Source of the DNA: a virus
Lineage: Duplodnaviria > Heunggongvirae > Uroviricota > Caudoviricetes
Direction: 5' to 3' (one strand)
DNA: 41,625 nucleotides
Virus record (IMG/VR): IMGVR_UViG_2529293039_000011
Made by a program: the position numbers and the translations under genes. This document shows positions 15,127 to 21,184 of this stretch, one piece after another; positions within the stretch are counted from its first letter, which is position 1; each line of letters starts with the position of its first letter. The notes under the pieces are model-generated. The model was not told where the DNA came from, did not search any database, and saw nothing but the letters and a program-made list of their open reading frames with translations.

Positions 15127-15293
15127 TTGACCAAAATCGAAGTTACGAACAAGAAAGCGTCGAGCGAGCTTTAACGTGCGCTAACTGCGGTCAGAAGCTG
15201 CATGTGCTGGAAGTTCACGTGTGTGAGCACTGTTGCGCAGAACTTATGAGCGATCCGAATAGCTCAATGTACGAGGAAGAAGACGATGAATGA
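15123..15293 (+). CDS. ninF: NinF-like protein (about 57 aa, GTG start; track ORF begins at 15081)
   Basis: [48 protein letters not shown] matches my recollection of lambda NinF; Cys-rich. Confidence 0.6.
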
Positions 15294-16008
15294 GTTAATA
15301 AATGGCAATGCCATAAAAATGACAAGCATTGAAATCGCTGAGTTGGTTGGTAAGCGTCATGACAATGTGAAACGTACCATCGAAACGCTGGCTAAAAATG
15401 GTGTTATCCGGCTTCCTCAAATTGAGGATTGTGGAAGAATCAATGGGTTAGGCTTAAATCAAAGTTTTTGTGTGTATGTATTCGAAGGCGAACAAGGAAA
15501 GCGAGACAGTATTGTCGTTGTAGCCCAGTTGTCGCCGGAATTCACGGCTCGCCTTGTTGACCGTTGGCGAGAGCTTGAAGAAGCTGCGGTTAATATCCCA
15601 AAAACGCTACCAGAAGCGTTGCGCCTTGCTGCTGACCTTGCTGAGCAGAAAATGCAACTGGAAAACCAGCTAGCAATTGCCGCACCTAAAGTTGAGTTTG
15701 CCGATCGCGTTGGCGAGGCCAGCGGAATTTTGATTGGAAACTTTGCAAAGGTTGTTGGAATTGGTCCAAACAAACTGTTTGCGTGGATGCGCGATCACAA
15801 AATCCTTATTGCTTCAGGTTCCCGGCGCAATGTGCCAATGCAGGAATATATGGATCGCGGCTATTTCACAGTGAAAGAAACAGCGGTCAACACAAATCAC
15901 GGAATACAGATATCGTTCACCACAAAAATCACCGGGTGTGGTCAACAGTGGCTGACCAGAAAGCTGCTCGATAACGGAATGCTGAAAGTAACAGGGGAGG
16001 CTGCTTAA
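15286..16008 (+). CDS. Rha/KilAC-family phage antirepressor-like protein (240 aa)
   Basis: N-terminal Rha-like block (TSIEIAELVGKRHDNVKRTIETL) and C-terminal KilAC-like region. Confidence 0.7.
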   Translation: MNELINGNAIKMTSIEIAELVGKRHDNVKRTIETLAKNGVIRLPQIEDCGRINGLGLNQSFCVYVFEGEQGKRDSIVVVAQLSPEFTARLVDRWRELEEAAVNIPKTLPEALRLAADLAEQKMQLENQLAIAAPKVEFADRVGEASGILIGNFAKVVGIGPNKLFAWMRDHKILIASGSRRNVPMQEYMDRGYFTVKETAVNTNHGIQISFTTKITGCGQQWLTRKLLDNGMLKVTGEAA

Positions 16009-16298
16009 TGGCTAACCTACGCAAAGAAGCTCGCGGCAGAGAATGCCAGGTACGTATTTACGGCGTATGCAATGGCAACCCTGAAACTACAGTTCTGGCA
16101 CATTACCGGATGGCTGGAATTTGCGGAACGGGAATGAAGCCTGACGACCTGATCGGCGCATGGGCTTGTAGCGCGTGTCACGATGAAATCGACCGACGCA
16201 CCCATAACCTCGACAACAAAGACGCCAGACTTTACCACCTCGAAGGCGTGATCAGGACGCAGGCGATACTGCTGAAGGAGGGGAAGATTAAGCCATGA
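16008..16298 (+). CDS. ybcO: YbcO-like protein (DUF1364, 96 aa)
   Basis: Cys/His cluster (CQVR..CNGNPETTVLAHYR..CSACHDEIDRRTH) matches my recollection of DLP12 YbcO. Confidence 0.7.
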   Translation: MANLRKEARGRECQVRIYGVCNGNPETTVLAHYRMAGICGTGMKPDDLIGAWACSACHDEIDRRTHNLDNKDARLYHLEGVIRTQAILLKEGKIKP

Positions 16299-16657
16299 AC
16301 GAATATCAGTTTGTGCTTCCATACCCGCCGTCGGTGAATACCTACTGGCGAAGACGGGGAGGCCAATACTACATCAGCGATAAAGGCCAGAAATACCGAA
16401 AAGACGTTCAGCAAATCATTCGCCAACTCAAGTTAGACATTTTCACCAAATCACGACTCCGTATCAAAGTCATCGCAGACGTTCCAGACTCCCGCCGCCG
16501 CGACCTCGACAACATCCTGAAAGGTTTACTCGACTCCCTTATCCACGCCGGATTTGCGGAAGACGACGAGCAATTCGATGACATTCGCGTAATTCGTGGT
16601 GTGAAAGTACCAGGCGGAAGGCTTGGAATAAAAATCACCGAACTGGAGAACACATGA
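16295..16657 (+). CDS. rusA: RusA Holliday-junction resolvase (120 aa)
   Basis: Protein MNEYQFVLPYPPSVNTYWRRRGGQYYISDKGQKYRKDVQ... with the RusA acidic catalytic region. Confidence 0.9.
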   Translation: MNEYQFVLPYPPSVNTYWRRRGGQYYISDKGQKYRKDVQQIIRQLKLDIFTKSRLRIKVIADVPDSRRRDLDNILKGLLDSLIHAGFAEDDEQFDDIRVIRGVKVPGGRLGIKITELENT

Positions 16658-16788
16658 ACAAAGCATTCGAACGATATATGCGCCAGCGTTATGGCAATCG
16701 CTACGATCTTACCCGCGATGCTTACGGCTTCTACTGTCGTGAGGTTGTGAAACGAATGTTTGAAGTGTGGTGTCATTGCAAAGGATAG
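16654..16788 (+). CDS. Small protein (44 aa) coupled to rusA, possibly YlcG-like
   Basis: ATG overlaps rusA stop (ATGA); translates MNKAFERYMRQRYGNRYDLTRDAYGFYCREVVKRMFEVWCHCKG; below track cutoff. Confidence 0.4.
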   Translation: MNKAFERYMRQRYGNRYDLTRDAYGFYCREVVKRMFEVWCHCKG

Positions 16789-16799
16789 AGGGGAAGACG

Positions 16800-17423
16800 A
16801 TGAGACTCGAAAGCGTAGCTAAATTTCATTCGCCAAAAAGCCCGATGATGAGCGACTCACCACGGGCCACGGCTTCTGACTCTCTTTCCGGTACTGATGT
16901 GATGGCTGCTATGGGGATGGCGCAATCACAAGCCGGATTCGGAATGGCTGCATTCTGCGGTAAGCACGAACTCAGCCAGAACGACAAACAAAAGGCTATC
17001 AACTATCTGATGCAATTTGCACACAAGGTATCGGGGAAATACCGTGGCGTGGCAAAGCTTGAAGGAAATACTAAGGCAAAGGTACTGCAAGTGCTCGCAA
17101 CATTCGCTTATGCGGATTATTGCCGTAGTGCCGCGACGCCGGGCGCAAGATGCAGAGATTGCCACGGTACAGGCCGTGCGGTTGATATAGCCAAAACAGA
17201 GCAGTGGGGGATAGTTGCTGAGAAAGAGTGCGGAAGATGTAAAGGCGTCGGTTATTCAAGAATGCCAGCAAGCGCCGCATATCGCGCTGTGACGATGCTA
17301 ATCCCAAACCTTACCCAACCCACCTGGTCACGCACTGTTAAGCCGCTGTATGACGCTCTGGTTGTGCAATGCCACAAGGAAGAGTCAATCGCAGACAACA
17401 TTTTGAATGCGATCACACGTTAG
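16800..17423 (+). CDS. Q: Late-gene antiterminator Q, lambda type (207 aa; track ORF begins at 16767)
   Basis: MRLESVAKFHSPKSPMMSDSPRATASDSLSGTDVMAAMGMAQSQ... matches my recollection of lambda Q, including the zinc-binding CRDCHGTG...CGRCKG. Confidence 0.92.
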   Translation: MRLESVAKFHSPKSPMMSDSPRATASDSLSGTDVMAAMGMAQSQAGFGMAAFCGKHELSQNDKQKAINYLMQFAHKVSGKYRGVAKLEGNTKAKVLQVLATFAYADYCRSAATPGARCRDCHGTGRAVDIAKTEQWGIVAEKECGRCKGVGYSRMPASAAYRAVTMLIPNLTQPTWSRTVKPLYDALVVQCHKEESIADNILNAITR

Positions 17424-19500: not shown

Positions 19501-19997
19501 TGTCGCCATCATTACGCAAGGCTGTTGCTGCTGCTATTGGTGGTGGGGCTGTTGCCATAGCGTCTGTGCTCATCACTGGTCCGAGTGGTGACGATGGCCA
19601 GGAAGGTGTCAGCTACATACCATACGAAGATATCGTTGGCGTATGGACTGTATGTCACGGACACACCGGAAAAGACATCATTCCCGGTAAAACGTATACC
19701 GAAGCAGAATGCAAAGCCCTCCTGAATAAAGACCTTGCCATGGTCGCCAGACAAATTAACCCGTACATCAAAGTCGATATACCGGAAACAACGCGCGGCG
19801 CTCTTTACTCGTTCGTTTACAACGTGGGCGCTGGTAATTTCAGAACATCGACGCTTCTTCGCAAAATAAACCAGGGTGATATCAAAGGCGCATGTGACCA
19901 GCTACGTCGCTGGACATACGCTGGCGGTAAGCAATGGAAAGGGCTGATGACCCGTCGTGATATTGAGCGTGAAGTCTGTTTGTGGGGGCAGCAATGA
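19500..19997 (+). CDS. R: SAR endolysin (GH24 lysozyme with signal-anchor-release domain, 165 aa)
   Basis: N-terminal Gly/Ala-rich SAR helix [20 protein letters not shown], then catalytic region [15 protein letters not shown]; matches my recollection of R21. Confidence 0.9.
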
Positions 19998-20461
19998 GCA
20001 GGGTAACCGCGATTATCTCCGCTCTGGTTATTTGCATCATCCTCTGCCTGTCATGGGCTGTTAATCATTACCGTGATAACGCCATCGCCTACAAAGAGCA
20101 GCGTGATAAAAAAGTCAGTGAGCTGAAGCAGGCGACCGCCACCATTACTGACATGCAGCAACGCCAGCGTGCTGCTGATGTACTCGATGCTAAATACACG
20201 AAGGAGTTAGCCAATGCGAAAGCTGAAAATGATGCTCTTCGGCGTAAGCTTGATAATGGTGGTCGGGTGCTCGTCAAAGGAAAATGCCCTGTGCCAGCCT
20301 CAGCCAAAACCTCCAGCTCCTCCGGCATGGGCAATGATGCCACCGTCGAACTCTCTTCAGTTGCTGGACGAAACGTTCTCGGTATCCGGGACGGAATTAT
20401 CCGTGACCAAACAGCACTGAGAACGCTTCAGGAGTACATCAGGACGCAATGCCTGAAATAA
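19994..20461 (+). CDS. Rz: i-spanin Rz (155 aa; track ORF begins at 19982)
   Basis: [39 protein letters not shown]... matches my recollection of lambda Rz; ATGA overlap with R. Confidence 0.85.
20214..20420 (+). CDS. Rz1: o-spanin Rz1, embedded in the +1 frame of Rz (68 aa)
   Basis: Lipoprotein signal with lipobox VVGCSS and Pro-rich mature part; fully nested within Rz. Confidence 0.7.
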
Positions 20462-20492
20462 TTTTTTTGCAAATCACAAAGTCAATTTAATG

Positions 20493-20517
20493 AGCCTCGC
20501 GATGCGGGGCTTTTTTA
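20493..20517 (+). terminator. Intrinsic terminator after the lysis cassette
   Basis: Hairpin AGCCTCGC-GAT-GCGGGGCT followed by TTTTTT. Confidence 0.5.
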
Positions 20518-20659
20518 TGTCCGCAGTAAACGCGCATCTCACGCGCATATTAACGAGAGCCTTTCAGTAAGCGAGCCTGAGAAATGCCGTTATAGGTGGC
20601 GACCTCTCTCGGGCGGCTTTTCTGTGAGACAGGCTCACTTTCTAAAAGGTAAAGACGCT

Positions 20660-21184
20660 ATGAATAATCATTCAGTTATTCCAGCCTTCGACTTCCGAGA
20701 AATGGTGCAAGCCAAAAACGGAGAGGTCGTTACCACATCCAGAAAAATTGCCAAGTACTTCGGCAAGCGACACGGTGATGTTCTCAGGAAAATCGAGCAG
20801 GTTAAGGCTGATTGCTCGCGTGAGTTTAGCCAACGCAATTTTGCGTCGGCTGATTATATCGATGAGCAGGGCAAGGTTCGCCCGATGTACAGCCTGACGA
20901 AAGATGGCTGGATCATGGTTGTGATGGGGTTCACCGGGAAAGCTGCTGCGGCAATCAAGGAGAGCTATATCGCAGCATTCAACTGGATGGCAGAGCAACT
21001 GAGCCGCCGCATGGCAATTGGCGAAGAAATGCAGCACCGCTACGCCATCAAAGAAACACGCTCAAAGCTGAAAGGTACGATCGGCAGTCGGTTAATGAAC
21101 GAACGGAAGAAAGAGAAGCGTGTCCTGGCTGTCGAGCATGAATACATTTTGCAGGTGACACAGCCTGAACTGCTGATTAATTGA
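20660..21184 (+). CDS. Rha-family phage regulatory protein (174 aa; track ORF begins at 20624)
   Basis: Rha block TTSRKIAKYFGKRHGDVLRKIEQV near the N-terminus; sits between Rz and cos. Confidence 0.7.
   Translation: MNNHSVIPAFDFREMVQAKNGEVVTTSRKIAKYFGKRHGDVLRKIEQVKADCSREFSQRNFASADYIDEQGKVRPMYSLTKDGWIMVVMGFTGKAAAAIKESYIAAFNWMAEQLSRRMAIGEEMQHRYAIKETRSKLKGTIGSRLMNERKKEKRVLAVEHEYILQVTQPELLIN

Follow-up and report, generated by a model that had tools for sequence, protein, structure and literature searches.

roi and rha, two unrelated accessory regulators of a lambdoid prophage, and the candidate leader RNA that precedes rha

Two genes with a Rha-type N-terminal domain lie on the plus strand of a 41,625-nucleotide stretch of DNA from a tailed virus of the Caudoviricetes (IMG/VR virus record IMGVR_UViG_2529293039_000011), which we refer to as the window. 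We hold with considerable confidence that they are two unrelated accessory regulators of a lambdoid prophage that have this domain in common, namely roi (15286..16008) in the nin region and rha (20660..21184) among the late genes. As annotation the finding is correct, though it is ordinary and was known before. Some novelty attaches only to the segment in front of rha. Here, rha may be one cargo of a widespread and apparently uncatalogued leader that sequesters the Shine-Dalgarno (SD) sequence and marks an exchangeable late slot in temperate phages of the Enterobacterales, in which Rha, Roi-like, KilA-N, and T5orf172 proteins would be interchangeable under one post-transcriptional control. We regard this proposal as evenly poised between right and wrong.

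The first gene starts at an ATG and encodes 240 amino acids, in which a Rha-like, helix-turn-helix (HTH) N-terminal domain is followed by a C-terminal KilAC (ANT) domain. The initial annotation of this DNA had named Rha and KilAC domains for the two open reading frames (ORFs) and proposed a search with hidden Markov models as the check; both ORFs were confirmed at the coordinates given, the search was run, and Pfam and PHROGs support both assignments with E-values well outside the range of chance, the Rha match of the first gene being marginal against its cut-off. KilAC (PF03374) covers amino acids 126-228 (15661..15969, plus strand) with an E-value of 4.4e-32 and 111.1 bits against a gathering cut-off of 25.3, and Phage_pRha (PF09669) covers amino acids 12-99 (15319..15582, plus strand; a variant allele) with an E-value of 6.6e-8 and 33.5 bits against a cut-off of 29.9. 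Because Roi of phage HK022 scores 25.2 bits on Phage_pRha and falls under that cut-off, "Rha-family" is a borderline label for Roi proteins. The gene belongs to phrog_63, "anti-repressor Ant" (E 2.7e-95), and its RefSeq entry, WP_001003979.1, is a "phage antirepressor KilAC domain-containing protein."

The placement of this gene in the nin region is borne out by its neighbors, which run NinB, Dam methylase, NinE, NinF, roi, YbcO/DUF1364, RusA, and Q. Its start overlaps the ninF stop (15293) and its stop overlaps the ybcO ATG (16008), a packing typical of the nin operon. The 1.8-kb ninE-ninF-roi-ybcO-rusA block is 93-96% identical at the nucleotide level to HK140, HK75, HK620, HK97, and HK022, and protein identity reaches 88% with HK022 Roi and 87% with HK97 Roi. 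On this full-length orthology, together with the synteny of ninF-roi-ybcO-rusA, the gene is identified as roi. Differences from the HK022 and HK97 proteins cluster at about amino acids 22-65 (window 15349-15480), with the KilAC half nearly invariant, and the alignment identifies this divergence as a mosaic joint inside roi. The domain architecture, the nin neighborhood, and the position of an integration host factor (IHF) core are all shared with Roi of HK022, which together with HK97 gp65 and HK620 Roi is the closest known system. What sets the window protein apart from HK022 Roi is a diverged N-terminal stretch of ~45 residues, which fits Phage_pRha better (33.5 versus 25.2 bits) and may confer a different DNA specificity.

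That IHF core is a perfect match to the consensus AATCAATGGGTTA inside roi at 15438..15450 (plus strand), a candidate site by consensus match, and it is one of only four perfect WATCAANNNNTTR matches in the 41.6-kb window. In the roi genes of HK022 and HK97 the match likewise falls at nucleotide 153, with the codon position unchanged, despite diverged flanks; coding constraint on an I-N-x-L motif could alternatively explain its conservation. Roi reportedly binds DNA inside its own gene, adjoining an IHF site, and is said to block HK022 lytic growth in IHF mutants. The initial annotation had also stated that Rha proteins can interfere with lytic growth in some hosts and had named plating on IHF-deficient hosts as a check; a block of lytic growth in such hosts is indeed a known phenotype of phi80 and P22 rha and of HK022 roi. 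Passages of PMC4936722 and of PMC3430580, the latter citing Clerget & Boccard 1996, describe the lytic-growth block by HK022 roi and Rha-type genes in IHF-deficient hosts, and the phi80 record carries the note "DNA synthesis inhibition in IHF- hosts" on rha. Judging from these homologues, Roi and Rha of the window would be DNA-binding regulators, dispensable as long as the host is wild type but inhibitory to lytic growth once IHF is absent.

The second gene also begins with an ATG and encodes 174 amino acids, with a Rha domain at amino acids 25-111 and a long C-terminal helix at amino acids 94-167. Its match to Phage_pRha is strong (E 2.2e-28, 99.1 bits against the cut-off of 29.9), PHROGs places it in phrog_518, "Rha-like transcriptional regulator" (E 4.3e-78), and RefSeq names it "Rha family transcriptional regulator" (WP_001059339.1), a name that nearly all of the 243 database relatives listed also bear. 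The protein is 100% identical to the "Rha protein" of phiv205-1, 73-75% identical to phi80 Rha (E 5e-110), and 36-37% identical to P22 Rha (ORF201; E 1e-32). These similarities identify the gene as rha of the phi80/P22 type, in a module that is phi80-like and is shared in identical form with the P22-like phage phiv205-1. In the AlphaFold2 model of the protein (pLDDT 84.6), a compact alpha/beta domain at the N-terminus leads into a single long helix. The top fold matches to the model are weak and comprise winged-helix, MerR, and PadR DNA-binding proteins as well as coiled coils, and the modeled fold suggests a DNA-binding head on an oligomerizing stalk.

The initial annotation had described rha as occupying the bor position of lambda. 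The location is correct, in that rha lies between Rz/Rz1 and the small terminase gene, and lambda bor was confirmed to lie directly after Rz on the opposite strand. The implication that the location is unusual did not hold, because the type rha genes of phi80 and P22 directly follow Rz/Rz1 and the "bor position" is thus the normal position of rha. The gene stands directly 3′ of Rz/Rz1, on the same strand and ahead of the packaging genes, in the window, phi80, P22, and phiv205-1 alike. In the window these neighbors are the Rz spanin gene (19982..20461, plus strand, with a RefSeq start at 19994; phrog_13 "Rz-like spanin," E 1e-71; RefSeq "lysis protein"), an Rz1 ORF embedded in it (20214-20420, plus strand), and, after rha, a DUF1441 small terminase gene, terS (21800-22294). 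The resemblance to lambda bor is positional only, since both fill the interval between Rz and cos; bor is on the opposite strand and encodes an unrelated lipoprotein expressed in lysogens.

Reading roi and rha as duplicated regulators, as the initial annotation had done, fails at the protein level. The two proteins have no BLASTP similarity to each other (best E 0.59) and belong to separate mosaic modules with separate histories. A duplicated Rha pair, one early and one late, could be imagined as a conditional control circuit, given that both genes match Phage_pRha and sit in different temporal operons, but conditional control by the pair is speculation without supporting evidence here. In addition, HK022, HK97, and HK620 have roi but no rha, the reverse is true of phiv205-1, P22, and the 2B8 late region, and KilA-N, Rha, Roi-like, and T5orf172 genes can each take the slot that follows the lysis genes. 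Interchangeable filling of the slot and separate occurrence of the two genes argue for independent cargo instead of a co-evolved pair. A duplicated pair is therefore largely refuted, and we consider it barely credible.

Upstream of rha, the sequence is organized as a terminator followed by a structured leader. The 5′ end of the rha cassette is an intrinsic-terminator-like hairpin with a T-run (20492..20518, hairpin 20492-20512, plus strand), found by terminator scan, and the same sequence carries a terminator annotation in the phi80 record. Two further hairpins on the plus strand are predicted before the start codon: P1, a small hairpin of the form GCGC-AUCUCAC-GCGC (20532..20546; RNAfold), and P2, a long imperfect hairpin of ~92 nucleotides (20559..20650; RNAfold and covariance model). 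In the basal helix of P2, GCCUUU (20559-20564) pairs with the SD sequence AAAGGU (20645-20650), and the 3′ strand of P2 has a conserved bulge of 6-7 nucleotides. This bulge contains GTG 20624, the codon at which the phi80 and phiv205-1 records start rha, and the corresponding frame is closed or shifted in other leader types. Given this place of GTG 20624 within the hairpin and its lack of conservation as a codon, we take as the right start ATG 20660, which is conserved and which both the initial annotation and the RefSeq PGAP annotation use. By the same comparison, the deposited rha coding sequences of phi80 (locus L001, 2965-3519) and phiv205-1 (L003, 7965-8525) are probably over-extended by 12 codons.

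Several comparisons indicate that the structure is maintained while its sequence changes. The pairing of the SD sequence at the base of P2 covaries, appearing as CCUUU/AAAGG, UCUCU/AGAGG, and UCUUA/UAAGG. When diverged leaders were folded independently, 20 of 22 shared the P1 and P2 architecture, and all but 2 of the 41 non-redundant leaders (39) contain an equivalent of P1, whose stem takes 22 distinct pairings (GGCACA/UGUGCC, UUGCC/GGCAA, and GCUC/GAGC, for example). Covariation statistics were computed on 43 distinct aligned sequences, which are phylogenetically related and whose alignment was fitted to the model; on this basis 93.8% of P2 cells are paired compared with 77.4% in shuffles, and 16 of the 19 pairs show changes on both sides, which amounts to 133 such cells where 46 would be expected. 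None of 500 shuffles reached the observed P2 values, and slid registers gave at most 0.148 against 0.503. The U-G pairs are frequent, which points to an RNA formed from the sense strand and not to a DNA palindrome. A covariance model of the leader built from 13 sequences and searched on 447 kb returned 53 matches, all on the rha strand and nearly all ending at an ATG, and its single match in the window spans 20553-20662 with 108 bits. A second pairing was observed that competes with P2, in which a 5′ segment (GAGCC or GAACC) pairs with a 3′ arm (GGCUC or GGUUC) and covaries (GC in 16, AU in 12; alignment A3 columns 71-75 with 164-168, window about 20555-20559 with 20632-20636). This pairing may be a two-state switch or an alignment artefact.

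The leader has no match in Rfam 15 at the gathering threshold, either for the whole window or for five diverse loci, and searching Rfam 15 in E-value mode gave only chance-level matches to miRNA-precursor-like hairpins and terminator look-alikes, far below gathering scores. No copy was found in lambda, and no description of an rha leader was found in the literature and database sources searched. The Pas small RNAs (sRNAs) of enteropathogenic Escherichia coli (EPEC) sit away from the leader, beside Q and the holin-lysozyme genes. In its anatomy the leader resembles other SD-sequestering phage leaders, such as those of the lambda N and cIII mRNAs, where a long imperfect 5′ hairpin takes in the ribosome-binding site. 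The lambda N leader and the cIII mRNA structures are RNase III-sensitive. They differ from the rha leader in that there is no sequence or Rfam relationship between them and in that the rha leader is portable between unrelated downstream genes.

How far the leader extends beyond the window can be followed from close to distant relatives. Between the end of Rz and the rha start codon, terminator and leader included, no nucleotide differs between the window and phi80, and the gene has the same post-Rz/Rz1 position and strand in both; phi80 differs in that its recorded coding sequence starts at the upstream GTG and in that it has a second leader copy that is absent from the window. P22 is conserved over the same interval in blocks with compensatory substitutions. 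In IMG/VR contigs, ~130 nucleotides before the ATG are conserved even beside a different upstream Rz module, and in a set with one genome per species the leader is recognizable before rha homologues down to ~38% protein identity. Leader type is decoupled from Rha protein similarity, which implies a recombination joint near the start codon. Of 109 distinct contexts, 105 have a terminator-like hairpin with a T-run ahead of the leader, the stem sequence varying among them, and 62 of 86 have an Rz/Rz1 homologue no more than 1 kb upstream. Contigs bearing the leader include ones labeled Yersinia, Xenorhabdus, Providencia, Erwinia, Mixta, Rosenbergiella, Gilliamella, Halomonas, and Ventosimonas. Rha genes with enterobacterial-type leaders were also seen in a metagenome-assembled genome labeled Collinsella sp., an actinobacterium (L088; 100% identity to the gene of the enterobacterial phages), and in an assembly of a Bacteroidota isolate, Chryseobacterium sp. 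(L104; 72% identity to it), for which contamination or mis-binning is more likely than true host range.

The genes that follow the leader are varied. A pattern scan of viral contigs gave 80 leader loci. Of these, 47 have a Rha-family ORF downstream and 3 a Roi-like one; the other 30 comprise two KilA-N types, a 228-amino-acid Rha-domain type, a T5orf172/MUG113 type, and one of no assigned family. The second leader copy of phi80 is complete and runs up to the start codon of PHI80_66, an unrelated gene. The KilA-N gene gp73 of HK022 and HK97 is preceded by the leader (67.4 bits), which ends at the ATG of gp73; gp73 (KilA-N plus P63C) and the late KilA-N genes of Shiga toxin (Stx) phages occupy the same slot after the lysis genes as rha does, although gp73 belongs to the KilA-N DNA-binding family and not to Rha. 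On a Rosenbergiella contig, a leader-rha unit directly follows a Roi-like gene (matching Phage_pRha at 1e-12 and KilAC at 8e-26) that has a leader copy of its own. Outside the window, leader copies map to 4488-4580 in L001, 5425-5539 in L005, 5421-5535 in L006, and 1502-1611 and 2363-2476 in L129. Because the leader precedes such varied genes, rha of the window is best described as one cargo of a portable cassette made up of terminator, leader, and exchangeable regulator.

P22 Rha is informative about the cargo proteins themselves. It shares with the window protein the Rha N-domain, the post-lysis, pre-terminase position, and a homologous leader with compensatory changes, whereas its C-terminus matches Pfam ORF11CD3 and the long helix of the window Rha aligns to that tail without a Pfam match. 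An ORF11CD3-like C-terminal tail was observed as a strong match in P22 Rha (L002, 2905-3510) and a weak one in the KilA-N cargo proteins of L183 and L199. Since this tail is common to Rha and KilA-N cargo, the DNA-binding heads are swapped on a shared C-terminal module.

Portability of this kind also raises the question of whether the cassette is a selfish, homing-type mobile unit whose leader and terminator serve as a recombination or homing target with no regulatory RNA role. The same leader stands before unrelated genes, including one for a T5orf172/MUG113 protein, and T5orf172 proteins belong to the GIY-YIG superfamily and are related to homing endonucleases of phage ICP1 (PMC8263062); the recombination joint near the ATG fits this picture as well. 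A recombination target, however, needs sequence identity and not compensatory changes, and both-side changes are what the P2 pairs display. Many of the U-G pairs in the leader work on the sense strand only, and Pfam finds no nuclease domain in the window Rha. We therefore judge a purely selfish unit quite improbable.

For expression of the two genes, we propose the following. As a translationally packed member of the delayed-early pR nin operon, roi would be made early, and rha would be a late-operon gene transcribed by Q-antiterminated polymerase that reads through the upstream terminator. A consensus scan of 20485-20660 found no sigma-70-like promoter on the plus strand, although non-consensus promoters are possible; with no promoter between the terminator and rha, transcription is most likely by the Q-antiterminated late polymerase alone. 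Judging from the anatomy of the leader, translation of rha would be held down by SD sequestration in P2 until the hairpin is opened or cleaved, for which RNase III or a trans-acting factor are candidates. Downstream of rha, the only terminator candidate is weak (21668-21697). We also considered rha as a moron, an insert expressed independently from its own promoter, and rejected this assignment, as the consensus scan shows no sigma-70-like promoter upstream of the gene and its strong terminator is upstream instead of downstream.

This order of expression bears on the possibility that Roi and Rha are true antirepressors that inactivate the CI-type repressor of their own or a co-resident prophage, as P22 Ant, P1 Ant1, and the Gifsy antirepressors do. 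The names given to the first gene by PHROGs and RefSeq favor such a role, as does the KilAC domain, which P1 Ant1/KilA also has, and a passage of PMC7067206, citing Lemire et al. 2011, describes trans-acting antirepressors that cross-induce Salmonella prophages. A third gene of this class adjoins the repressor gene: the Bro-N domain gene at 9203-10135 (minus strand), directly downstream of the CI-like repressor gene (10216-11037) in the lambda rexAB position. On the other side, homology is the source of the antirepressor names, and what has been published for the homologues is inhibited growth in hosts without IHF. Because the repressor combines an HTH with an S24 autopeptidase domain, RecA-mediated self-cleavage would be enough for induction, and no antirepressor is needed for self-induction. 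Finally, a delayed-early roi and a late rha behind a terminator would be expressed only after derepression, too late for induction of their own prophage. Antirepression is thus an unlikely explanation of the pair, and accessory regulators of the IHF-linked type remain our preferred description. We note separately that the Bro-N gene is the third KilA-N/Bro/Rha-class gene of the prophage and that one of the four perfect IHF cores lies inside it at 9814-9826.

The remaining features of the window place both genes in context. Nucleotide alignment identifies the window as a lambdoid prophage that is a close relative of the torS-adjacent prophage of EPEC strain E. coli O127:H6 E2348/69 (99.2% identity, 33 gaps), in which RefSeq already annotates counterparts of roi and rha. 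Position 1 of the window is the exact stop-codon end of a tyrosine integrase gene (1-1074, minus strand). In the early-left region, the window has an IS21-family insertion (about 2880-4832) that is absent from the near-identical E2348/69 prophage and shows the two prophages to be distinct, with IstA (rve integrase core) at 2966-3988 and IstB ATPase at 3985-4767. The tape-measure gene (31232-34317) is broken into a pair of ORFs that overlap (31232-32941 and 32863-34317); E2348/69 has the same split, and RefSeq labels the gene there as frameshifted. J (36702-40115) is intact in the window and frameshifted in E2348/69. The prophage of the window may be defective.

Two intervals near the late genes deserve mention. 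The stretch from Q to holin (17424-19284) is low in GC (38-44%) and is the site of stx in Stx phages and the reported site of the EPEC Pas sRNAs. It contains a gene for a multi-pass membrane-like protein of 252 amino acids with no assigned function (17661-18419; phrog_1521), a DUF3927 peptide (18505-18663), an opposite-strand ORF (18744-19142), and terminator-like hairpins at 18850 and 19219; no tRNAs were found in it. Between rha and the small terminase gene, the ~600 nucleotides at 21185-21800 hold no convincing gene, only an unsupported minus-strand ORF of 58 amino acids (21266-21442) and a GC-rich patch around 21590-21635. This stretch is probably the cos region. In lambda-like phages, cosB-type IHF sites precede the small terminase gene, and the perfect IHF core at 21675..21687 (minus strand), a candidate by consensus match, is consistent with that position and is probably a cos-region IHF site. 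No IHF consensus was found within the rha leader in the consensus scan of the window.

Carrying several domain-shuffled genes of this class is the norm for a lambdoid genome. HK022 and HK97 pair roi with gp73 after Rz, and Stx phages have Ant and Roi in the nin region with a KilA-N gene within the lysis region. Co-occurrence of roi and rha in the window is therefore ordinary mosaicism of long-known, dispensable lambdoid genes and matters little in itself. What it does offer is a set of corrections, in that the "bor position" is the canonical position of rha, roi and rha are no paralogous pair, and the label "antirepressor" has been carried over from other proteins and does not stand for a demonstrated function. 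The leader is of wider interest as a candidate new RNA family for Rfam. It links the KilA-N, Rha, Roi, and T5orf172 gene classes of temperate phages and would provide a handle on when and how they are expressed. If the proposal is true, shared control by the leader could supply what has been missing from explanations of the IHF-dependent "Rha" phenotype, described 40 years ago.

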